Shown: one piece after another, positions 510 to 19,561 of the stretch | Numbering within the stretch: the first letter of the stretch is position 1 | Layout of the letters: each line of letters opens with the position of its first letter | From: Ignavibacteria bacterium | GTDB taxonomy: Bacteria; Bacteroidota; Ignavibacteria; Tepidaquicellales; Tepidaquicellaceae | Reading direction: 5' to 3' | Assembly (NCBI GenBank): GCA_039925865.1 | Contig: JBDSYA010000213.1 | Location: 1 to 52,694 of the forward strand | Length of the DNA: 52,694 nt | The notes under the pieces: generated by a model | Seen by the model: the letters and a program-made list of their open reading frames with translations, nothing else | What the model was told of the DNA's origin: nothing | The model's database searches: none | Translations under genes and position numbers: made by a program

Positions 510-950
510 TCAGAATTTTATTAGTCTTTCATTAAAACTTTTACCATGTTCAAAGTATATTTTTGCAATATCGCCTTTGAAATATTGATCTGCCAGCTCA
601 GGCCATTCAATAACGCAAATTGAACTATCGCAGACATAATGATCAATGCCGATCTCTGTTAACTCCTTAATATTTCTCAATCGGTAAAGATCGAAATGAA
701 TGATCATTATCTTTGAACCTGAAGTATTTTCATTTCCGGTATATTCATTTACAATTGTAAATGTAGGACTGCTAACAATGTCATTCACATTATAATGACG
801 GCAAATACCTTTAACGAACTGAGTTTTACCCGAGCCGAGGTTTCCGTATAAACCGGTTACCGTGTTTTTTTTTAATGAAGAAGCATAGCCTTCACCGGCT
901 GAAAGTGTTTCTTCGGGTGAAGATGAAATTATTTCTTTTTTAAAACTCAA
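510..950 (-). CDS. tsaE: tRNA t6A biosynthesis ATPase TsaE
   Basis: P-loop GNLGSGKTQFVKGI followed by SPTFTIVNEY and HFDLYRL, typical of TsaE/YjeE. TTG start overlaps the upstream stop (TTGA). Confidence 0.85.
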   Translation of the reverse strand: MSFKKEIISSSPEETLSAGEGYASSLKKNTVTGLYGNLGSGKTQFVKGICRHYNVNDIVSSPTFTIVNEYTGNENTSGSKIMIIHFDLYRLRNIKELTEIGIDHYVCDSSICVIEWPELADQYFKGDIAKIYFEHGKSFNERLIKF

Positions 951-2533
951 GCTTTAGGCTCAAGAGTTATAACAGGAAGTATCATCTCATCTATAGAGAT
1001 GCCGCCGTGCTGAAACGTATCGTTGTAATGATTTAAATATTTGTGATAATCGGTCGGATAAACAAAATAGAAGTCTTCTTTTGCGATTATGTAATTATTG
1101 ATACCATTGCCTCTTGGCAGCCTGTATTCAGTCGGGTTTCTTATGAATAATGCATTACGTGAATCTGACTTAACATTCTTTCCGGATTTATATCTTAAGT
1201 TTGTTGAAGTATCCTTATCACCCATTGCTTTCACTCCATGAAGACATCTGATGCTGCCGTGATCTGTTGTAATAACAATTTTAACATCGTTCCTTGTTGA
1301 GAGCTGTCTCAGCATCCCAAAAAAGGAAGAGTGTTCAAACCACGATTCTGTAAGTGAACGATAAGCTGACTCATCGGGTGCAATTTCTTTCAGTATTGCA
1401 TTATCACTTCTGGAATGAGCGATCATATCTACAAAATTTATTACAATGGCATTCAAATGATTATTACAGTAAGACATGATTTTGCTTTCAATTCCTCTCC
1501 CGAAATTTGAATCCATTATCTTCGTATATTTAACTTCGTTTCTCAGCTTAATCCTTCTTCTCTCAAGAAGCTTGATCAAGAAATCCTTTTCATAATTATT
1601 TTTACTGTTCTCATCATCATCACTTAATTTCCAGAGTTCAGGATAGTGATGTTCAAGTTCGGAAGGATACAATCCTGAAAAAATTGAATTACGGCTGTAG
1701 GGAGTTGCAGTTGGAAGAATAGAGTAATGGTAATCTTTTGTAATTCTGAAGTAATCATACAGATATTTTTCCATTACCATCCATTGATCCATTCTCATGC
1801 AGTCGATCACAAATAAAAATACTGATTTCGTTTTATCAAGTTCAGGAATGACAAACTTATCCACGACTTCATTTGACATGATGGGTTTGTCATCTTTAGA
1901 ATTGACCCACTTCAGATAATTCTTTTCCACATATTTTGAAAACTCTGTATTACAATCCCGTTTTTGTGTTAAGATAGTCTGCTTAAGGCCAAGGTCGGGA
2001 TGTTCATCAAGTTCAATTTCCCATCCGGTCATTTTTAAATGTATGTCTATCCAGTCTTTCCAGTCAGGACCTTCAAGCATTGCCATAGATATCTTATTAA
2101 ACTCCTGTATATAATCTTTTGAGGCCTGGCTTCCTTTGAGACGCTTAGACTCCAGCATTTTTTTACAAACCAAAAGTAATTGTGTCGGGTTTACAGGCTT
2201 GATAAGATAATCAGAAATCTTATTGCCAATAGCCTCTTCCATTAAACTTTCAGTTTCATTTTTTGTAACCATTACTACAGGCAAACTGGGTTTAAGATCT
2301 TTTATTTCAACCAAAGTCTGAAGACCGCCCATTCCTGTCATCATTTCATCCAAAAATACCAGATCGAAATCATTATCACGTATAAGATTTATTCCATCTT
2401 CCCCGTTGGTTGCTTCCTGAACATTGTAACCTTTTTGCTTTAAGAACATTATATTGGATTTCAATGATTCGATCTCATCATCAACCCATAATATATTGTT
2501 TTTATCTTTCGACAGAATTTCTGCACTATGCAT
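947..2533 (-). CDS. porX: PorX-like response regulator: CheY receiver plus PglZ (alkaline-phosphatase superfamily) domain
   Basis: N-terminal receiver (ILWVDDE...DLVFLDEMMTGMGG...KP). C-terminal PglZ-like motifs (FLFVIDCMRMDQW, ITTDHGS). The 528-aa size and architecture match PorX. Confidence 0.7.
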   Translation of the reverse strand: MHSAEILSKDKNNILWVDDEIESLKSNIMFLKQKGYNVQEATNGEDGINLIRDNDFDLVFLDEMMTGMGGLQTLVEIKDLKPSLPVVMVTKNETESLMEEAIGNKISDYLIKPVNPTQLLLVCKKMLESKRLKGSQASKDYIQEFNKISMAMLEGPDWKDWIDIHLKMTGWEIELDEHPDLGLKQTILTQKRDCNTEFSKYVEKNYLKWVNSKDDKPIMSNEVVDKFVIPELDKTKSVFLFVIDCMRMDQWMVMEKYLYDYFRITKDYHYSILPTATPYSRNSIFSGLYPSELEHHYPELWKLSDDDENSKNNYEKDFLIKLLERRRIKLRNEVKYTKIMDSNFGRGIESKIMSYCNNHLNAIVINFVDMIAHSRSDNAILKEIAPDESAYRSLTESWFEHSSFFGMLRQLSTRNDVKIVITTDHGSIRCLHGVKAMGDKDTSTNLRYKSGKNVKSDSRNALFIRNPTEYRLPRGNGINNYIIAKEDFYFVYPTDYHKYLNHYNDTFQHGGISIDEMILPVITLEPKA

Positions 2534-7231: not shown

Positions 7232-7762
7232 ATGGAAACATTAGCAAAAAACTACCTGCATAATTGTATCAAAGAATTTAAAAAACTTAAAGAACTTGGT
7301 GATAACACATTCATGCAGATAAAGGATCAGGATTTTTTCTGGTCTCCGGATGAAGAATCCAACAGCATTGCAATTATTGTAAGACATCTCAGCGGAAATA
7401 TGTTATCAAGATGGACAGACTTTCTTAATTCTGACGGGGAAAAACAAAACAGAAATCGTGATGAAGAATTTGACAGGTTATTTTATACGGACAAAGATGA
7501 TGTGATCTACAGATGGGAAAAAGGCTGGAAGTGTTTATTTGAAACTCTTGAATCATTGAAAGAAGATGACCTGATCAAAGAAGTATTCATAAGGAAGGAA
7601 AAGCATTCGGTCATTGAAGCAATTAACAGGCAGCTGACACATTATGGATATCACCTGGGTCAGATCGTGTATTTAGGAAAACATCTTGAATGTGCGAATT
7701 GGAAAAGTCTGTCGATTCCCCGAGGAAAGTCAAAAGCTTTTAATGAAAAGCTCGGAATGTAA
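7232..7762 (+). CDS. DinB-superfamily (DUF1572-like) protein
   Basis: Four-helix DinB-like pattern with H-containing helices (IIVRHLSGNM, QLTHYGYHLGQIVYLGK). Confidence 0.55.
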   Translation: METLAKNYLHNCIKEFKKLKELGDNTFMQIKDQDFFWSPDEESNSIAIIVRHLSGNMLSRWTDFLNSDGEKQNRNRDEEFDRLFYTDKDDVIYRWEKGWKCLFETLESLKEDDLIKEVFIRKEKHSVIEAINRQLTHYGYHLGQIVYLGKHLECANWKSLSIPRGKSKAFNEKLGM

Positions 7763-7832: not shown

Positions 7833-8441
7833 TCACAACTCCATTCCAAGGACAGCATCTTTGAGCTTTCCGTTATTCATTTTATAAAATGGAATTCCCA
7901 GTATCTCCATCGAGTCATACCTCATATCATATTTAAAACTTTTTATCGTATCACTTTTTTCCGCTTCAAGAGAGATCAGAATAAATTCGGAAAGTTTTTT
8001 TGCGTCATCTTTGCCATACGCAAAACCTACAAGCTTTACATTATACTTCTGAGGAGAAGCGACAGGATGGCGGAGTGTGAACTGAGTTGCAAATTCCTTC
8101 ATTGTATCAAGCGGGCAATAAAAAGCCGGAATATAAAATGTAATATCTCCTGAAGTCATTTCTCCTGAAGACCCAAACAGATTTTTCAGAAATTCACCTT
8201 TAGCTTTTCTCTCTAAAATATTAACATTAACCTTGATAAGCCAGAATGGTTTATAGATCATTTCACCTTCAGACGGAATAGCAGCTGCAGCAAAATTTAT
8301 TTCTATTGGTATGAGATCACCGTTGAGGATCTCAAATCCGCTCCCACAGCTTGAGCAATAAACAATATTATCATTTACTTCAATGATAAGGCCGCTGCCG
8401 CAACTTCTGCATTTTACTGCTTCTAATTTGAAATCAGACAA
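7833..8441 (-). CDS. Soluble zinc-ribbon protein, paralogue of the two upstream ribbon-TM proteins
   Basis: TTG start. C11-x2-C14-x14-C29-x2-C32. Repeated aromatic-Pro motifs (YKPFWLI, YIPAFYC, GIPFYKM). No TM segment. Confidence 0.6.
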   Translation of the reverse strand: MSDFKLEAVKCRSCGSGLIIEVNDNIVYCSSCGSGFEILNGDLIPIEINFAAAAIPSEGEMIYKPFWLIKVNVNILERKAKGEFLKNLFGSSGEMTSGDITFYIPAFYCPLDTMKEFATQFTLRHPVASPQKYNVKLVGFAYGKDDAKKLSEFILISLEAEKSDTIKSFKYDMRYDSMEILGIPFYKMNNGKLKDAVLGMEL

Positions 8442-8510
8442 TATTCTAGTTATTTATTTAAAAGATCAGATTATAAAATTATAAAAAAAAATGGTTAAGA
8501 CAGATATCAA

Positions 8511-9653
8511 CTATCTTCTTGAGTTTAACAGAGCTCCAAGGACGCTGCCGATCACCACTGATGTTGCAACATCTTTTGCAATGTTAAGACCGCTATTGTT
8601 TTGAAGATTTTTAATTGTTAATTTTTTATCCTGCTGAGTTTCGATCCCCGTTCCTTCTTCGATCTCACCGCCGTATCTAAATTTTTTATAACCCCATTTT
8701 GCAAGAAATATTCCCATGACAAAAGAAAATATGAATGCAAAGAATGGAAATTTTTCTGCAACTTCAAACATTGCAAATACTCCAAATAATGTCATGAAGA
8801 ACATGCCTGCTCCTGTCCCGGCAATTCCCATAATTGCTCTGTATAAATTATTTCCGGGAGCCTTTCCATAGCAAAGACTACCGTCTTCGCCGTCAATAAT
8901 AACCTGATAAGTTCTTTTCTCATAGCAATACCTGACAACCCACAAAGGATAGTAAATAATATCAATGTTTTCCCTGACAAGGTCATAATGTTCGAAAGAG
9001 ATATTGTCCAGATTTATTGAATTTCTTGCTGCGGAAGCAAAATTATTTTTTGCAAATTCAAAAGCTTCCTTTTCCGAAGCAATTACATTAAACATCATCC
9101 CTTCTCTTTGAAGTAATTCGAAGTCAACAGGGACAATTGTATCGCCGGTCAGATTGATTTTTTTTACTCCGAGCTCTGCTACATCACACGCAGAATAGGT
9201 TTGTTCAAAGGACTGCTGGATTTTTTTTTCCATATCAACATAATATGTAGTTGTCCTTCCGTTTGATGTGCTTGTCCTTTTCTCCTGTCCAAATACCCAG
9301 CCAACTACATCGGCTCTGACTCTCCAGTAAGGGATATATACCAGAAAAGTTTCGGCAATTTCTGAATTTGCTTTTAAACCCTTAGCTTTTGCAATCCCTG
9401 AACCCAGCCATCCAATTGCCTTTGAAACAGCATCTTCTTTCTTCAGCTTCTTTGGGACATAGTATCGCAAAGTTCCACTCTCGCCTTTGATGACAAGCAA
9501 TGCCCCGCAATATTTACAGTTAAAAGATTTTAAACCTTCCCTGATATCCAGCTCGCCGCTGCATGAAGGGCACGTTATACCTTTTATAACTTTTTCTTTT
9601 TTTAACTTAATTGCCTGGTCTGCTGTCTGTTGCTGCTCGGTGATCTCACTCAT
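8511..9653 (-). CDS. Zinc-ribbon membrane protein (two C-terminal TM helices plus hydrophobic tail)
   Basis: C28-x2-C31-x14-C46-x2-C49. Motifs YIPYWRV and YYPLWVV. TM segments IMGIAGTGAGMFFMTLFGVFAMF and FPFFAFIFSFVMGIFLA. Tail VATSVVIGSVLGALL. Confidence 0.65.
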   Translation of the reverse strand: MSEITEQQQTADQAIKLKKEKVIKGITCPSCSGELDIREGLKSFNCKYCGALLVIKGESGTLRYYVPKKLKKEDAVSKAIGWLGSGIAKAKGLKANSEIAETFLVYIPYWRVRADVVGWVFGQEKRTSTSNGRTTTYYVDMEKKIQQSFEQTYSACDVAELGVKKINLTGDTIVPVDFELLQREGMMFNVIASEKEAFEFAKNNFASAARNSINLDNISFEHYDLVRENIDIIYYPLWVVRYCYEKRTYQVIIDGEDGSLCYGKAPGNNLYRAIMGIAGTGAGMFFMTLFGVFAMFEVAEKFPFFAFIFSFVMGIFLAKWGYKKFRYGGEIEEGTGIETQQDKKLTIKNLQNNSGLNIAKDVATSVVIGSVLGALLNSRR

Positions 9654-9748
9654 TGAATAAAATAATTTTTGCTTTTGTAAATCTTAATACCGGATTTATA
9701 ATAAATCCTTTCTTACACACCCATTTATTACATTACATCCGAATAAAA

Positions 9749-10570
9749 CTAAACTTTTTTTGCGATCCAATATGCCATGATAGTTAAAGGCACAGCGGCT
9801 ACTATATAAGCAACGATCTTTATTCCCTCGCCGGCAAGCAAAATCCCTTCAAATGAATCAGTAACCATATATGCGATTACATATGAGATAAGACTTGCAA
9901 GCGCAAATATAAGTATAGCTGCGGCGAATAAAATTTTAAAAGGAGCTTCACTTTTTGCGGGCCATAAATTTGCATAGACCATTCCTGAAGATGCCTCAAC
10001 TAAAGCGGAATACTGTTCCGATTTATAATTGTAATAAAAGTGATGAAATGGAACGTGTACAAGATTAGATTCAGCAATAGACTCTTCATTAACTCCTGAT
10101 TGTGATAGCCAGCTTTTTGCAGATTCATATAATACATCCGCATCCACAAATTCCTTTGGGTTAAAATCTTTTTTTTGATAGGGTTTTAAATTCCCTGCAG
10201 GGATCTTAATGTTTTTAATTTCGGAAACAGGTGTTGAATGAGCAGGCTGTAAATGTATTTTATCTCCTGATGCATCCTTGGTTTTAAAATACCATAACGG
10301 AAAATAATAAAAATCTGACCGGGTTATCTGCGCGGTTTTATCGAGATCTTTCACATGAAAATTACTTGCCATCCACCTTCGTAAGTTTCCTTCAGCTTGT
10401 TCCTTAGTGAAATTTGAAGTTACAATATAATGGATTACAACTTTCTTTTTGTCAACATATATAGCCGAACCGCAGAATTCACATTCGAAAAATCTTTCGT
10501 CTGTAGGTATTTTATTTTCTCCGCCGCATTGAGGACAGATAATTGTTGGTGATGTAATTAGTTCAGACAA
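9749..10570 (-). CDS. Zinc-ribbon membrane protein (two C-terminal TM helices)
   Basis: TTG start. C12-x2-C15-x14-C30-x2-C33. Motifs YYFPLWYF and HVPFHHF. TM segments FKILFAAAILIFALASLISYVIAYMV and IVAYIVAAVPLTIMAYWIA. Confidence 0.65.
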   Translation of the reverse strand: MSELITSPTIICPQCGGENKIPTDERFFECEFCGSAIYVDKKKVVIHYIVTSNFTKEQAEGNLRRWMASNFHVKDLDKTAQITRSDFYYFPLWYFKTKDASGDKIHLQPAHSTPVSEIKNIKIPAGNLKPYQKKDFNPKEFVDADVLYESAKSWLSQSGVNEESIAESNLVHVPFHHFYYNYKSEQYSALVEASSGMVYANLWPAKSEAPFKILFAAAILIFALASLISYVIAYMVTDSFEGILLAGEGIKIVAYIVAAVPLTIMAYWIAKKV

Positions 10571-10667
10571 ATATTCCGGATTAAATTTCTTTAATAACTT
10601 TAAAGCAAAAATGAATATCTGTTAAAATATTATCTGGGTAATCAATTGATCGAATCTGAAGACGCGC

Positions 10668-11663
10668 TCAAAGTTTTGCAAGCAGCTCTTTTTTCTTTGC
10701 ATCAAACTCTTCCTGGGTAAGCAATCCGGTTTCTTTCATCTTACCTAATTTTTCAATAGCACTCATTATCTCATCTGCGCTCATTTTTTGGACAGGCTGC
10801 TGTTGCTGATTTCCCTGCTGTTGTTGATTTTGCATCTGCTGTCCCATTATATTTGCCATGGTCATACCTGCACCAAGTCCTACACCGGCTCCTGCAAGAC
10901 CTCCGCTTTCATTCTCTGCAGCTTTTTCTATTGCACCTGCAGTTTTAAATTTCATGTAAGCATCGAGATTTCCGACAGCCCCCATCGAACTTCTTTCGTT
11001 GATTTTTTCCTGAACTTCTTCAGGCGGTACTATCCCGACAATAATCAGATCGGTTAACTCAATGCCCATTGCATTGAAAAAGTCCGCAACTTCTGCTTTT
11101 ACACCGGTCTCTATCTGCTGATAAAATTGGCCAAGCTCAAAAACTGTCTTTAGATTTTTTCCAAGGACAGAATTTAAACGTGATACGATTGCATCTCTTA
11201 AATAATCTTCGATCTCATTGGTAGTATAAAGTCCCTGTGTTGAAACTATCTCGATCATGAATTGTCTCGGATCTTTTATCCGTAGAGAAAATTTTCCTGA
11301 AGCTCTCAGCTGTACATATGTCAGCTCTGAATCTTTAAAATTGATTGGTGACTTTGTGCCCCATTTCAGATCAATGAATTTTTTCATTGAAATAAAATAA
11401 ACCTGTGCCTGAAAAGGTGAAGTGCCGCCAAAGGGCAGGCTGATTAACTTTGATAGAAAAGGAATATTTTCTGTAGTAAGGGTATGCCTTCCGGGACCGA
11501 AGACATCTAATGCTTTCCCGTCACGATAAAAAATTGCAGATTGTGAATCCTGCACTATTAATTGTGTACCTAATCTGAAATTAGATGAACCGTCCTGCGG
11601 CTCACGATGAACCAATGCCTTACCTGTTTCATCAAAATATTGTATTACATCTATTAGAGCCAT
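10668..11663 (-). CDS. SPFH/Band-7 protein of the YdjI-like subtype, with Gln-rich linker and C-terminal SHOCT domain
   Basis: N-terminus [14 protein letters not shown]...[35 protein letters not shown] is typical of the Band_7_1 type. Linker [16 protein letters not shown]. Tail [28 protein letters not shown] is SHOCT-like. Confidence 0.85.
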
Positions 11664-11710
11664 ATTGTTAAATTTTAAATTTTAAAAATTAAATGATAAT
11701 TGTTAACTTT

Positions 11711-12238
11711 TTATAATTGTTTCAGAAGTTGTTCCCGCTCATCAAATTTTTTTAAAAGATCATCCAGATTATTTGATATCTGAGAAATGTGATTTTTCAA
11801 TTCTTCTTTTGCATTAGCTTTTGATTCCATATCCGCAAAATCTTTATTGACATTTTCTACATAGGTCAGAAGATTAAAATCAAATTCATAAACCCTTGCA
11901 AGCTTGTCTTCTTTGACTTTTGAAATATCGAATGCTCCGCTGTAGCCTCTCGCTGCTGATTTAAACTTTGCGATGGCATTTTCATTTTTTTTCTCAAGTT
12001 TCTCAAGGTCTGAAGTCTCAAATAATTTTCCGTCCTGAGAAAGTTTAAGAATTGTATTTTTTATTTTGGTTTTATTATCCTCAAGTTTATTTGCAAGGCT
12101 GTTCCTGAGAATCGTATCAAGTTCGCGGGAGTTGTCTCTGTTAACATAGCCGTCATAGCCGGGAATGTACCTTTTGATTTTTTCAAGCCACGACTCATTT
12201 GACTTTACCTGTTCTAAATGGGAATTTAAATCACTCAT
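11711..12238 (-). CDS. All-helical coiled-coil protein, first gene of the SPFH/zinc-ribbon module
   Basis: 175 aa, charged heptad-like sequence throughout. Motif YIPGYDGYVNRDNSRELDTILRN. No TM segment and no recognisable catalytic motif. Confidence 0.55.
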   Translation of the reverse strand: MSDLNSHLEQVKSNESWLEKIKRYIPGYDGYVNRDNSRELDTILRNSLANKLEDNKTKIKNTILKLSQDGKLFETSDLEKLEKKNENAIAKFKSAARGYSGAFDISKVKEDKLARVYEFDFNLLTYVENVNKDFADMESKANAKEELKNHISQISNNLDDLLKKFDEREQLLKQL

Positions 12239-12304
12239 GGATTAGTGGGTTTGATTTTTATTCTAAAAAAATTTAATTGTTAAAGAAAATTTAAAGGAGA
12301 TTTA

Positions 12305-12838
12305 ATGGCCACCGAAAAAATTTTCTTGTCTGTTCTTTTATCACTTTTCCTTATTATTCCTTCAAAGAGTAAAAATGAACAGGGCAAATATAGTGAAACC
12401 TCTTATAATTTTCTTGATACAAATATAAATATCAGGGAAGTTATTGATTATACTTTACTGCTATTGCCCGGAGAAGTAACAAAGGTAGAGAAGAAATTCA
12501 AAAAAGATATTCCTATCTGGAAAATTAATATGATCACATCTACGGGTGGATCAATTGAGGTAGAACTTTCCTGTAAAGATAAAAAGTTATTGAATCTGGA
12601 AGCTGATGAAGGTCCATTTGATTATGAGATAATTCCCGATAACGGAATGGTGTCATTTACCGCAGCTAAAAAAACTGCGGAAGAATATACCTCTCAGAAT
12701 ATTTTAAAATGGTGTCTGAAACAAAACCGTGATAAAATGGAATATAACTTCTGGCTTTTTACAAAAACCGGAAAAGCTCAGGTAAAAGTCGATGCAGAAT
12801 CAGGAGATATAGTTACAAAGACGAAAAAGAAAAAATAA
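12305..12838 (+). CDS. Secreted PepSY-like protein
   Basis: GGAG SD. Signal peptide IFLSVLLSLFLIIPSKS. Two PepSY-like units (IWKINMITSTGGSIEVELS...; KAQVKVDAESGDIV). Confidence 0.45.
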   Translation: MATEKIFLSVLLSLFLIIPSKSKNEQGKYSETSYNFLDTNINIREVIDYTLLLLPGEVTKVEKKFKKDIPIWKINMITSTGGSIEVELSCKDKKLLNLEADEGPFDYEIIPDNGMVSFTAAKKTAEEYTSQNILKWCLKQNRDKMEYNFWLFTKTGKAQVKVDAESGDIVTKTKKKK

Positions 12839-12895: not shown

Positions 12896-14146
12896 TTACT
12901 CAGCCTTTAGCTTATAATCATATACTTTGCTTTCCTCTCCTGAAGTTACAATATATTTCACTTCGATTTTATGCTCGCCTTTTGAAAGCCTTGTCTGAAA
13001 ATCCGTTTTAGGGTGTCGCTGAGATGTCTGCATGCCGAAGTTTGCAATCTCCCCGGTATTTATGAATTCACTATTGCCGTCCATTTTATAAAAAATATTT
13101 GTTGCAAGATAATCAGTACAGATAAAGACAACCGAATATTCTCCCCCGCCCAGTGCATACATCTGTACATTGATAGGATTTTTTATCATATCACCCAGAG
13201 GTCCCGTCTTATTTAGATTTGTTTCTGTCTGAAGTGTTTTCTGTGCTTCGGTAAGCATATCAGCACTGACAAAATATTCTTTCAATTGCTTATTCGCCGG
13301 AAGAGCAATCATAGCATCGAGATATTTTACCTGCTTATCTCTGTCAAGCATCGAAGCCTGCGGCAGATTAGCATAGGAATATTCAGTGATCAGCATATAG
13401 ATTAATGGTGCTGTAGGATCACCCTCGGCATATATTTTTTCGTAACCTTTGACTCTTTCAGCTCTGTCATCCAGAACTTTTACTTTCATAATTTTAATTA
13501 GCTGATTATTTGAATATTCATCTGAAAGTTTTGTAAAATAATCAATCAGATATTCTTTTCCTTTCACATTTTTCGTAAGCTCGATGTACTGCAGATACGG
13601 ATCGATATAGTTAAGATTAAATTCAAAAAGTTTTTCAAATGCTTTTATCGCATCTTCGTTCAACCCTTTTAGTTTATACAAGACGGCGTTACTGTACCAT
13701 TCCTGTGGAGTCCTCGGACTGCTGATGATCCCGCCGTTAAGATCCACCTGCGTTATCTTTGCAGTTAAGTTGTCGAGCTTGGAATCAATTTTCTTAACAT
13801 CTCCTTTTATCTCTGTTACATCTTCGCCGATCTTCAAAACATCTGTCTGGAGTTTTGAAATAACATCAATGTTGTCAGCGAGATATCCCTGCGCAGGGCC
13901 GGCTTTTGATATTGGAATATAAATCCCCCACATTAAAGCAAATACCGCACATGAGAAAAATGCAGCCACCCATTTTTCTTTATGAATTACCTTACCTTCT
14001 TTTGATTTATAACGAAGAAGTGCTATCCCTGTTATTAATGCTCCTGCTATGGAAATAATGAGGAATATTAAACCAAAATCTGCAAATGGCTTGAGCACAT
14101 CACCGATAAAACCTCCGACAGAACCGATAAGCCCGAGTGGCAGCAA
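12896..14146 (-). CDS. Membrane-anchored protein (2 TM, coiled coil, helical-repeat region, C-terminal beta domain), function unknown
   Basis: TTG start. TM segments FGLIFLIISIAGALITGIALL and VAAFFSCAVFALMWGIYI. Coiled coil TDVLKIGEDVTEIKGDVKKIDSKLDNLTAKI. Beta-rich tail. Confidence 0.5.
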   Translation of the reverse strand: MLPLGLIGSVGGFIGDVLKPFADFGLIFLIISIAGALITGIALLRYKSKEGKVIHKEKWVAAFFSCAVFALMWGIYIPISKAGPAQGYLADNIDVISKLQTDVLKIGEDVTEIKGDVKKIDSKLDNLTAKITQVDLNGGIISSPRTPQEWYSNAVLYKLKGLNEDAIKAFEKLFEFNLNYIDPYLQYIELTKNVKGKEYLIDYFTKLSDEYSNNQLIKIMKVKVLDDRAERVKGYEKIYAEGDPTAPLIYMLITEYSYANLPQASMLDRDKQVKYLDAMIALPANKQLKEYFVSADMLTEAQKTLQTETNLNKTGPLGDMIKNPINVQMYALGGGEYSVVFICTDYLATNIFYKMDGNSEFINTGEIANFGMQTSQRHPKTDFQTRLSKGEHKIEVKYIVTSGEESKVYDYKLKAE

Positions 14147-17127: not shown

Positions 17128-17739
17128 TCAATAATTTTTTATTTTCTCTTTAAGGTATTTATTAAGGAGTTCTCTACCGCGGAATATATGAGCCTTTATA
17201 GTGCCAAGAGGCAGCTTCATTTTTTTTGCAATTTCTTCGTACTCAAGTTCTTTCTTGTGCCTTAAAACAATTACATCCCTGTATTTTTTCGGAAGAGATC
17301 TGATGGCTTCATCAAGAATTTCTTTCATTTGGTTATTCATGATCTGCTTATCCGGTTTATTTTCATGATCCGGGATCTCAAATCTATATTCACTGTCATC
17401 AGACTCAATGTCCTTATCAATGGAAAATGTTGCAAGTCTTTTTTTTCTTAAATAATCAATTGCGTTATTTGTTGCGATCTTAAAAAGCCATGTGGAGAAA
17501 GAGAATTGCTTGTCAAAATTATGTAGAGAATTAAATGCTTTTATGAATGCCTCCTGAGTAAGATCTTCCACATCTTCTTTTTTTGAGATCATCCGGTAAA
17601 CAAGATTGTAAATAAGCTGGTAATATTTTTTCATCAGCTTTTCATATGAGGCTTGTTTGCCTGAAAGGGCATCTTCGATTAGAATAATATCATCGGCTTT
17701 TGATTTACTGTAAAACTTAACGGGATTTTCGATTTTCAT
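17128..17739 (-). CDS. ECF-type RNA polymerase sigma-70 factor
   Basis: Region 2 (EDLTQEAFIKAF...FSTWLFKIATNNAIDYLRKK) and region 4 (YRDVIVLRHKKELEYEEIAKKMKLPLGTIKAHIFRGR). Confidence 0.85.
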   Translation of the reverse strand: MKIENPVKFYSKSKADDIILIEDALSGKQASYEKLMKKYYQLIYNLVYRMISKKEDVEDLTQEAFIKAFNSLHNFDKQFSFSTWLFKIATNNAIDYLRKKRLATFSIDKDIESDDSEYRFEIPDHENKPDKQIMNNQMKEILDEAIRSLPKKYRDVIVLRHKKELEYEEIAKKMKLPLGTIKAHIFRGRELLNKYLKEKIKNY

Positions 17740-17872: not shown

Positions 17873-19561
17873 ATGGAAAAAGTAAATATTTTAAACTTAA
17901 CTGCAGAAGAGCTTGAACATGAGATTATTGTTTTAAATGAGCCTAAATACAGGGCTGAGCAGATCTTCACTTCACTTCACAAAAATCACAGCAGGGAATT
18001 GAGAAATATTTCAGGAATATCCTCCGTTTTAAAAACCACACTCGATGACAATTTTTTTATACCGGTTTTAAAAAATACAAAGATTACTGATTCAAAACAT
18101 TTCGTTACTAAAAAATTTCTCTTTGAAATAATCCAAGCTAATGAAACCTGTTACATTGAATCTGTTCTCATTTCTGAAAAAGAAAGGAATACCATTTGTT
18201 TGTCAACTCAGGTCGGATGTAATGTCGGGTGTGAATTTTGTGCTACCGGAAAAATGGGATTTAAAAAAAATCTGAATGTCAGCGAAATTGTTATGCAGGT
18301 TTATGAAGTGATCAGGCTTACGGGTATAATACCTACCAACATAGTTTACATGGGCATGGGTGAACCGTTTCTCAATTATGATAACATGATCAAATCCCTG
18401 AAAATACTGACACATCCAAAAGGGCTGGCCATATCGTCAAAAAGGATAACAGTATCAACTGTCGGATTCAAAGGCAAGATCATAAAATTTGCAAATGATC
18501 TTATGCTTGAAGAAAATAAGTATATCAAGAATGTTAAACTTGCACTATCCCTGCATTCTACAGACAACGGAGTGAGAGAATCTATTATTCCAACTTCAGT
18601 TAAAAATAAATTACCCGATCTTTATAAAGAGATAAGTTATTTTTATCAAAAAACCAGGAACAAGATCACTTATGAATATATTCATTTTGAAGGATTGAAT
18701 GACACAATGGATGATATAAAACGGCTGGAGAAAATCTCACGAATGGTGCCTTCGAATATTAATATTATTCCTTTCCATCCGATTGATTTCGAGTTAAGCA
18801 AACCACTGGATATTTATAACGGCAAAAAAGATATTAATAAATTACTTTCAAATCAAAAATTATTTGATTTTATTGCCGAACTTAAAAGGCAAAAAGTTAT
18901 TGTAAATCTTCGTTCGAGCAGCGGAATTGATATACATGCAGCATGCGGACAACTTGCAGTAATTCAAAAAGAATCACATAATATAAAAAACATGTATCAG
19001 TTAATTATTTTCGGGCCTCCGGGAGTTGGTAAAGGAACACAAGCAGAGTTGCTGGCAAAAAAATTAAATCTTGAGCATATCTCCACAGGAGCCATATTGA
19101 GAAAAGCTTTTGATGAAGGAAGCGAGCTCGGTATAAAGGCAAAAGAAATTATGGATAAAGGAAACCTTGTGCCCGATGAGATCATGAACGGAATAGTTAA
19201 AGAAAATCTGAAAAGCAGTAATAAAGAAGGATTTATTCTTGATGGATATCCGCGTACCGTTAAGCAGGCGGAAGCTTTATCCGGTATTTTCGATGAACTG
19301 GATTTAAAAGAGATAATGGTTATAACATTAAGTGTTGATGAAAAAGAAATAATTGAAAGGTTACTGAAGAGAGGCAGGAGTGATGACACAGAGGATTGCA
19401 TAAAAAACCGACTCGATATTTATACGGATTCAACCAAGCCAATAATTGAATATTTTAAAAACAAACACACAACTCTTAAGGTCAACGGTGCAGGTGAAAT
19501 TGATGAGATCAATGAGTTGATATTATCTTCAATTGAGAAAGAAGCAGCTCATAACAGTTAA
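17873..19561 (+). CDS. rlmN: Single ORF joining RlmN (radical-SAM 23S rRNA/tRNA A2503 C2-methyltransferase) to a short-LID adenylate kinase
   Basis: Residues 1-~365 carry CNVGCEFCATG (CX3CX2C), GMGEPF and a C-terminal AACGQLA. There is no stop codon before an in-frame Adk module. Confidence 0.85.
   Translation: MEKVNILNLTAEELEHEIIVLNEPKYRAEQIFTSLHKNHSRELRNISGISSVLKTTLDDNFFIPVLKNTKITDSKHFVTKKFLFEIIQANETCYIESVLISEKERNTICLSTQVGCNVGCEFCATGKMGFKKNLNVSEIVMQVYEVIRLTGIIPTNIVYMGMGEPFLNYDNMIKSLKILTHPKGLAISSKRITVSTVGFKGKIIKFANDLMLEENKYIKNVKLALSLHSTDNGVRESIIPTSVKNKLPDLYKEISYFYQKTRNKITYEYIHFEGLNDTMDDIKRLEKISRMVPSNINIIPFHPIDFELSKPLDIYNGKKDINKLLSNQKLFDFIAELKRQKVIVNLRSSSGIDIHAACGQLAVIQKESHNIKNMYQLIIFGPPGVGKGTQAELLAKKLNLEHISTGAILRKAFDEGSELGIKAKEIMDKGNLVPDEIMNGIVKENLKSSNKEGFILDGYPRTVKQAEALSGIFDELDLKEIMVITLSVDEKEIIERLLKRGRSDDTEDCIKNRLDIYTDSTKPIIEYFKNKHTTLKVNGAGEIDEINELILSSIEKEAAHNS
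18992..19561 (+). CDS. adk: Adenylate kinase module (189 aa), in frame with rlmN; possible internal start
   Basis: MYQLIIFGPPGVGKGTQAELLAKKLNLEHISTGAILR...GFILDGYPRT...RGRSDD. The LID is short and lacks a Cys4 knuckle. No SD precedes the ATG at 18992. Confidence 0.75.
   Translation: MYQLIIFGPPGVGKGTQAELLAKKLNLEHISTGAILRKAFDEGSELGIKAKEIMDKGNLVPDEIMNGIVKENLKSSNKEGFILDGYPRTVKQAEALSGIFDELDLKEIMVITLSVDEKEIIERLLKRGRSDDTEDCIKNRLDIYTDSTKPIIEYFKNKHTTLKVNGAGEIDEINELILSSIEKEAAHNS

Follow-up and report, generated by a model that had tools for sequence, protein, structure and literature searches.

In Bacillus subtilis, the SPFH protein YdjI (SamI) is cytosolic, needs YdjG and YdjH for its localization to the membrane, and is required to recruit PspA (PMC8581546; bioRxiv 10.64898/2026.02.06.704340). 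Here we describe five genes, G1 to G5, from an Ignavibacteria bacterium (contig JBDSYA010000213.1 of assembly GCA_039925865.1, positions 1 to 52,694; this whole 52,694-nt stretch is called the window below), which are predicted to encode an SPFH protein of the YdjI type (G2), three zinc-ribbon proteins (G3, G4, and G5), and a four-helix-bundle protein of a large unnamed family (G1). Our comparisons indicate that these genes form a conserved, operon-like unit in Ignavibacteriota and that G1 accompanies SPFH genes of this type in several other phyla.

Ring-like megacomplexes of SPFH proteins on membranes have been reported (bioRxiv 10.64898/2026.02.06.704340), as has a 24-mer, formed by a distant SPFH homologue from bacteria, that encloses a membrane compartment (PMC10936438). 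For the soluble subfamilies, a 2009 survey of SPFH proteins gave no documented members. The combination of Band_7_1 with SHOCT is a known and common architecture (PMC3581485), and YdjG has been described as having N-terminal zinc ribbon(s), an alpha/beta domain, and a transmembrane (TM) segment (PMC11237479). The SPFH type, the SHOCT fusion, and the link to ribbon membrane proteins and PspA are already known (PMC3581485, PMC8581546, PMC11237479, PMC10936438). In the open-access literature, we found no earlier description of the G1 family, of its cross-phylum pairing with Band_7_1, or of a PspA-free form with three ribbon proteins.

Layout of the five genes and comparison with described systems

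The features of the locus are as follows.

G1, 12238..11711, minus strand, 175 aa: modelled as a four-helix bundle, from a large family without a name (open reading frame, ORF, and AlphaFold2, AF2, model)
G2, 11663..10668, minus strand, 331 aa: predicted soluble YdjI-type SPFH protein (ORF and Pfam)
SPFH domain of G2, aa 28-228, nt 10980-11582, minus strand
Gly-rich hydrophobic segment of G2, about aa 255-276, followed by a Q-rich linker
SHOCT tail of G2, aa 302-328, nt 10680-10760, minus strand
G3, 10570..9749, minus strand, 273 aa: zinc ribbon, presumably cytosolic alpha/beta region, C-terminal TM hairpin
G4, 9653..8511, minus strand, 380 aa: zinc ribbon, alpha/beta units, TM hairpin, KKFRYGGEIEEGTG motif, terminal hydrophobic helix
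G5, 8441..7833, minus strand, 202 aa: soluble zinc-ribbon protein
Intergenic region of 66 nt, 12239..12304, separating G1 from the divergent PepSY gene: the only place where a promoter before G1 could lie

The spacers between G1 and G2, G2 and G3, G3 and G4, and G4 and G5 are 47, 97, 95, and 69 nt; a divergent gene begins 66 nt upstream of G1, and a convergent gene stops 70 nt past G5. A preliminary description of this DNA had reported five same-strand ORFs at 7833-12238 with 47-97 nt spacers and divergent and convergent flanks, and our ORF calls agree. Its further statement that the second gene encodes a YdjI-type SPFH protein with a Q-rich linker and a SHOCT domain was confirmed by Pfam (Band_7_1, E 2.4e-56; Band_7, E 2e-14; SHOCT, E 1.1e-7). 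G2 has no TM segment above threshold (maximum KD19 1.56), and we assign it from its sequence as a soluble SPFH protein of the YdjI/Band_7_1 type. Enzyme, NfeD, and PspA_IM30 domains were absent from the five proteins at E ≤ 1 in Pfam and NCBIfam, as had been noted, and NfeD had no Pfam match in the flanking genes 12305-12838, 7232-7762, and 12896-14146 either. A hydrophobicity scan placed a C-terminal pair of hydrophobic helices in G3 and G4, with G1, G2, and G5 below the TM threshold.

According to the preliminary description, the B. subtilis pspA-ydjGHI (pspA-samGHI) operon links YdjI, ribbon-TM proteins, and PspA, which is correct (PMC8581546). In both this operon and the window, the Band_7_1 SPFH protein is soluble and has a low-complexity linker as well as a small C-terminal domain, and the zinc-ribbon membrane protein(s) encoded with it are, judged by the published description of YdjG (PMC11237479), probably of YdjG-like architecture in the window too. 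In the window, however, the SPFH gene is second and not last, SHOCT replaces the C-terminal zinc finger, there are three ribbon proteins against one, and the first gene, G1, is an extra that is unreported in the Bacillus operon.

A second system is the Proteobacterial operon of Band_7_1, DUF4178, DUF350, and polyamine genes described earlier (Ravi et al. 2024, PMC11237479), which is headed by a Band_7_1+SHOCT-like gene and contains no G1. Its SPFH architecture resembles that of G2, for which tblastn covered 99% of the length in Novosphingobium, Ralstonia, and Burkholderia replicons, and DUF4178 is fused to G1 in some proteins. The Novosphingobium operon is nevertheless without G1, whereas the window is without DUF4178, DUF350, and polyamine genes. 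The SPFH-NfeD operons (stomatin, flotillin, and YqfA types; PMC2636767), in which a small partner gene stands by the SPFH gene in different phyla, provide the closest analogy for the role proposed for G1, although G1 has no similarity to NfeD and the N-terminal TM anchor of those SPFH subfamilies is missing from G2.

Conservation of the five genes as a unit in Ignavibacteriota

Close homologues were all derived from Ignavibacteria/Ignavibacteriota assemblies. We scanned the G1 alignment against one genome per species, which yielded 78 loci, all from Ignavibacteriota or unclassified relatives, and ran the five window proteins against these loci by tblastn. All five genes were present in the same order and orientation in 41 of the 78 loci, and about 12 further loci were consistent with the five-gene order but cut by a contig end. 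Two loci that were reached independently through homologues of G4, and not of G1, showed the same order. Among the complete loci, G2 was the most conserved protein (75-89% identity), while the others ranged over 53-80% (G1), 56-75% (G3), 51-76% (G4), and 50-77% (G5). Spacers in some relatives were as short as 7-37 nt (L022). The flanks varied, with the PepSY and DinB genes retained in closer relatives only, and the five-gene block persisted. Because the order is kept in 41 loci, and in those found through G4, while the flanks change, the arrangement is far beyond chance, and at the level of gene order the five genes constitute a conserved operon-like unit, in agreement with the five-gene module of the preliminary description.

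Pairing of G1 with Band_7_1-type SPFH genes across phyla

Outside this phylum, Band_7_1 was the next gene after G1, on the same strand, in loci from Eremiobacterota, Pirellulales, and Chloroflexota (L079, L081, and L082), and in an Acidobacteriota locus (L080) one zinc ribbon (ZnR)-DUF4097 gene lay between the two, again on the same strand. A metagenome scan provided 80 further diverse G1 loci, in which ORFs were called and searched with hidden Markov models (HMMs); we counted the 62 non-Ignavibacteria loci in which G1 was followed by 700 bp or more of sequence. A same-strand Band_7_1 ORF started within 300 nt after G1 in 44 of the 62, Band_7_1 was one gene removed in five, and the ORF calls overlapped in two, which makes 51 loci in all. 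Many of the G1-Band_7_1 junctions lay at -16 to +4 nt, which suggests that translational coupling of the pair is common in other phyla. When neighbours were clustered, Band_7_1 was the sole universal neighbour of the G1 family. These findings indicate that G1 is, as far as gene linkage can define one, a phylum-spanning partner of Band_7_1-type SPFH proteins, and that the three ribbon proteins are the lineage-specific part.

The pairs from Eremiobacterota, Acidobacteriota, Planctomycetota, Chloroflexota, and archaeal-looking contigs share order, strand, and families with G1-G2 of the window, whereas their SPFH C-terminus is mostly a double zinc ribbon or a helix-turn-helix in place of the SHOCT of G2. 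Some have no accessory gene, and in others the accessory is ZnR-TM-DUF4097, DUF4178, PspA, or a single soluble G4-like protein. In Acidobacteria-type loci, a gene for a ZnR-TM-DUF4097 protein stands between G1 and Band_7_1; we take DUF4097 to be one of the Toastrack-type models. The archaeal-looking contigs carry, in this order, a soluble 248-aa G4-like ribbon protein, G1, a Band_7_1 protein with a double zinc ribbon, and a small membrane protein, with UPF0147 and p27-type neighbours. Some G1 domains are fused to DUF4178, and on two contigs (L164 and L165) such a fusion is followed by a true PspA_IM30 gene and then by Band_7_1. These accessory genes connect the G1-Band_7_1 pair to the phage-shock-protein network and, because the G1-DUF4178 fusions are co-encoded with a real PspA, G1 would be an additional partner and not a PspA substitute.

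Two of the loci had further features. The G1/ZnR-DUF4097/Band_7_1 operon of the Acidobacteriota locus (L080:170-6768) directly adjoins a gas-vesicle cluster (GvpA, F/L, G, and K), and the SHOCT region of G2 gave a weak GvpG match (E 0.027); both are probably coincidental. On an apparently actinobacterial contig (L166:6001-9383), a low-complexity tail of 260 residues, rich in Gly, Ser, and Thr, extends the G1 domain; next come a 261-aa gene without assignment and then a protein that scores E 8e-134 with the G2 HMM and has no recorded Pfam hit.

The G1 family

The family profile search, which covered 1.84 billion representative proteins, assigned 1,292 clusters (50% identity) to the G1 family at E ≤ 0.001 and 703 at E ≤ 1e-10, most members being about 170 aa long. 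A second search found members in Planctomycetota, Eremiobacterota, Armatimonadota, Acidobacteriota, Chloroflexota, and a bin labelled Candidatus Nealsonbacteria, all annotated as hypothetical; a search of plasmids gave no match to G1. There is no Pfam family for G1. Its nearest named model, and the only one that matched G1 and its distant relatives over the full length, was the Leptospira family NCBIfam NF047596 (LIMLP_15305 family; E 2e-9, 37.6 bits against a cutoff of 210). The distant members also matched it at full length, and with all scores at 37-83 bits, far under 210, the window G1 is a remote relative of this family and not a member. For LIMLP_15305 itself, PMC7567364 gives only the locus tag beside a small RNA, and nothing functional has been published.

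Two motifs are conserved in G1, IPGYDGYvNRDNsRElD (aa 25-41) and SAARGYSGAFD (aa 94-104). The patterns IPGYDGY.N.DN.RE.D and SA.RGYSG.FD are invariant among Ignavibacteria, and in 40 distant members both motifs are nearly invariant (IPG[YF]xGY...RRDxD and YGYSGFFD). The AF2 model of G1 (pLDDT 81.5, pTM 0.78) is a four-helix bundle with helices at 37-68, 72-99, 110-142, and 148-174, its first 30 residues being of low confidence, and the helix topology of this model probably places the two conserved loop motifs at the same end of the bundle. The preliminary description had called this 175-aa protein a coiled coil; the model is a four-helix bundle with two strongly conserved loop motifs and not a plain coiled coil. 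Foldseek searches, which had been proposed there as a check, were run with the AF2 models of G1 and G4, and neither had a PDB match at E ≤ 0.001; the best for G1 was the IncA four-helix bundle (E 0.07). Profile and sequence searches of the PDB with G1 found no relative. An identity of G1 with PspAA/PspAB was also considered and rejected, as G1 is all-helical, unlike PspAA, which is described as three helices plus a four-stranded sheet.

A repetitive, possibly eukaryotic protein of 1080 aa (P0303) contains 12 tandem stretches (W/SGYGGYTSSDDVTELDTA) that match positions 20-52 of the G1 profile. The likeness to IPGYDGYVNRDNSRELDT is striking, yet is likely a low-complexity coincidence.

The zinc-ribbon proteins G3, G4, and G5

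Each of the three proteins has one CxxC...CxxC ribbon near its N-terminus (C12, C15, C30, and C33 in G3; C28, C31, C46, and C49 in G4; C11, C14, C29, and C32 in G5). G3 and G4 are full-length paralogues, with a BLASTP match of 2e-11 over the N-terminal 90 residues and an hhalign probability of 100% (E 1e-88) over 260 columns that include the TM region. Both have the paired C-terminal TM helices of the preliminary description, which had overlooked a third hydrophobic helix at the very C-terminus of G4. After its TM pair, G4 carries an invariant motif, KKFRYGGEIEEGTG (alignment A2), and one of its TM helices is glycine-zipper-like. The AF2 model of G4 (mean pLDDT 68, with residues 61-330 mostly at 70-90) shows a poorly modelled ribbon, two units of a helix plus a long beta hairpin, and two TM helices, and after the invariant motif a disordered stretch and then the terminal helix. 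G4 had no PDB match by Foldseek with this model or by profile search. G5 had been described as a soluble ribbon paralogue; it is soluble and has the ribbon, but its likeness to G3 and G4 is limited to the ribbon and the first strand (YKPFW in G5 against YIPYW in G4; hhalign 92%, E 6e-7, 64 columns), and we read it as a soluble, truncated relative.

A Vibrio coralliilyticus plasmid carries a Band_7_1+GYF_2 SPFH gene followed after 3 nt by a gene for a 352-aa protein (WP_021456963) with two zinc ribbons, the same alpha/beta region as G3 and G4, and one TM helix. This protein was matched by the HMMs of G3 (E 1.4e-27) and G4 (E 9e-31) and by tblastn with G4 (5e-8) in the plasmid search. Its N-terminus reads MLIDTKCSNC, and the ydjG cloning primer translates to MIISYKCPNC (primer: PMC8581546). 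We infer from the published architecture, the Vibrio homologue, and the primer-derived N-terminus that G3 and G4 are YdjG-like, YdjG being compared by its description. The occurrence of the family beside Band_7_1 on this plasmid, and also on the archaeal-looking contigs, agrees with the earlier linking of ribbon-TM proteins to SPFH proteins.

The SPFH/YdjG-like pair at L163 (NZ_CP048695.1, 1-3860) lies beside a divergent cluster encoding a TRAFs-binding-domain protein, a TIR-domain protein, and two hypothetical proteins, surroundings that may be a defence-type neighbourhood. A PepSY/YpeB relationship of the G3, G4, and G5 domains was not supported, hhalign against the neighbouring PepSY family giving probabilities below 10%.

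Genomic surroundings

GC content is flat across the region. On one side, the flanking genes encode a KdsD-like SIS-CBS protein, LptC, an LptA/OstA-like protein, and a DinB-family protein, and on the other a PepSY protein, an uncharacterised membrane protein, MutS, and an ECF-type sigma factor, whose gene (17128-17739) lies 5 kb from the five-gene operon and has no evident link to it. These surroundings are of a housekeeping kind, and nothing in them suggests a mobile element or a defence island. A weak sigma-70-like match was found upstream of G1 (12283..12254, minus strand), in a scan that was barely above shuffles.

The divergent neighbour (12305-12838, plus strand) encodes a PepSY-domain protein, and the gene at 12896-14146 (minus strand) a 416-aa protein that is hydrophobic in its N-terminal region and could be assigned to no family; since only the closest relatives keep them beside G1, both genes probably lie outside the module. 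Elsewhere in the window, RlmN_N and Radical_SAM domains (RlmN-like) occur together with an entire adenylate kinase domain (ADK, E 2.4e-50) in a single 562-aa ORF (17873-19561, plus strand), which is an unusual fusion unless the ORF call ran two genes together. In a 528-aa protein (947-2533, minus strand), a PglZ domain is joined to a response-regulator receiver domain; this protein is solitary, with no BREX-like context in the part of the window examined.

Proposed role and alternative explanations

We regard it as moderately probable that the region is one operon for a membrane-tethered SPFH complex that works like B. subtilis YdjGHI/SamGHI and has a core of G1 and the SPFH protein. Starting from the observed linkage and domain identities, we infer the physical interactions, the topology, and a role in membrane stress or homeostasis as follows. 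G2 would oligomerise under the cytoplasmic membrane, aided by its Gly-rich segment and SHOCT tail, and G3 and G4 would serve as membrane anchors, and possibly as sensors, that recruit G2 to the membrane's inner face, where G5 might modulate the docking of G2. G1 would, most likely, bind the SPFH oligomer directly as a dedicated partner, given its frequent translational coupling to SPFH genes in other phyla. It could promote assembly, regulate the oligomer, or serve as an adaptor, comparable to NfeD with stomatin-type SPFH proteins. The operon as a whole would then take part in the sensing of membrane stress or in membrane maintenance.

Several observations weigh against this proposal. A TPM_phosphatase (YdjH-type) domain was not found in the five proteins (Pfam, E ≤ 1), and PspA was not found in the operon (Pfam) or, by tblastn with two PspA queries, in the window or the 78 Ignavibacteriota loci. 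The link between G3/G4 and YdjG is indirect, running through the Vibrio protein and the description of YdjG, and the AF2 models of G1 and G4 had no informative structural match in the PDB (Foldseek). Promoter and terminator scans were uninformative, with counts near those of shuffles and minus-strand terminator-like sites inside ORFs. Moreover, 21 of the 78 Ignavibacteriota loci, each judged on at least 700 bp of downstream sequence, have a G1 orthologue (about 56% identity, motifs intact) without G2-G5 downstream; these belong to one subclade (L040, L047, L051-L053, L057-L066, L068, L071, L073, and L075-L077). In L052 (8001-8528), for example, the solitary G1 has a TPR-like gene on one side and is followed on the other by a TonB-dependent receptor-like gene. 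In other phyla, 11 of the 62 counted loci had no Band_7_1 downstream of G1. Because G1 stands without a nearby SPFH gene in these 21 Ignavibacteriota and 11 other loci, it may have an SPFH-independent function.

A wider proposal, which we put forward tentatively and short of calling it probable, is that G1 and the soluble Band_7_1 protein are an ancient two-protein membrane module of many bacterial phyla and of archaea, with G1 as the counterpart of NfeD, to which lineages add adaptors, the Ignavibacteria operon being the most elaborate PspA-free form. Under this proposal, and with the same reserve, the adaptors or effectors plugged in could be YdjG-like ribbon proteins, Toastrack-type proteins, DUF4178, or PspA.

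Among the alternatives, we consider it unlikely that the SPFH protein forms a cage regulating a client that the operon does not encode (a membrane protease, a transporter, or the polyamine machinery, for example), in the way that HflK/C acts with FtsH, with G1 and the ribbon proteins as client adaptors. The regulation of FtsH by HflK/C is established (PMC13086221), and the reported ring-like megacomplexes (bioRxiv 10.64898/2026.02.06.704340) and the 24-mer membrane compartment (PMC10936438) would suit such a cage, as would the Band_7_1+SHOCT genes in Proteobacterial polyamine operons and the genomes in which G1 has no SPFH neighbour. However, neighbour clustering revealed no recurrent client-like gene beside the G1-Band_7_1 pair, and Pfam and NCBIfam found no protease or transporter in the Ignavibacteria operon.

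A slightly weaker candidate, and a doubtful one, is the PspA-like role that the preliminary description had assigned to G1, in which G1 would stand in for PspA as a membrane-binding, polymerising effector brought to damaged membrane by the SPFH/ribbon scaffold. Like pspA in pspA-ydjGHI (PMC8581546), G1 is first in its operon; its AF2 model is all-helical, neither the window nor the 78 related loci contain PspA, and certain polyamine operons have Band_7_1 proteins in place of the PspA dyad (PMC11237479). The assignment is nevertheless not supported. Pfam searches at E ≤ 1 matched G1 to neither PspA_IM30 nor Snf7, and BLASTP against two PspA proteins gave E 0.9 or worse. Its helices are about 30 residues long and packed in a compact bundle, no PspA, Vipp1, or ESCRT-III chain was among the 50 Foldseek matches listed, and no hydrophobic or clearly amphipathic membrane segment was seen. 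A real PspA is also co-encoded with G1-domain proteins in L164 and L165.

That the genes are an anti-phage or abortive-infection module, in which the TM hairpins of G3 and G4 permeabilise the membrane once an SPFH/G1 sensor is triggered, is improbable. This idea draws on the glycine-zipper-like TM helix of G4, on one G4 orthologue that its source labels a phage holin family protein, and on the Vibrio SPFH/YdjG-like pair, which adjoins the cluster of TIR-domain and TRAFs-binding-domain genes. In addition, the B. subtilis operon depends on sigma-W, which is activated by membrane stress including phage infection (bioRxiv 10.64898/2026.02.06.704340). Yet PADLOC-DB 2.0 gave no hit for the five proteins, with matches at the zinc-ribbon level only (E ≥ 0.0045), PHROG matches were confined to the ribbon or SHOCT, and no relative of G1 was found in 2.9 million viral contigs. 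The neighbourhood consists of housekeeping genes (KdsD-like, LptC, LptA, DinB, and MutS), across many species of Ignavibacteriota the module shows the conservation of a core gene and not the patchiness of a defence island, and the open-access literature held nothing relevant on SPFH-based defence. Finally, that the five genes are adjacent by chance and do not work together, as the 47-97 nt spacers, wider than those of tightly coupled operons, and the unlinking of G1 from G2-G5 in one Ignavibacteria subclade might suggest, is scarcely credible given the order kept in 41 complete loci at 50-89% protein identity with changing flanks and the G1-Band_7_1 linkage in several phyla.

Soluble SPFH proteins of the Band_7_1/YdjI type are widespread, and the B. 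subtilis system is the only one that has been studied, the link between scaffold, anchor, and PspA still being worked out there. If G1 is indeed a general partner of these proteins, it would be a missing component for models of how SPFH scaffolds assemble or signal, and a family of more than 1,000 clusters without a Pfam entry or function would gain a name. The PspA-free versions would then help to separate the role of the SPFH protein from that of PspA.

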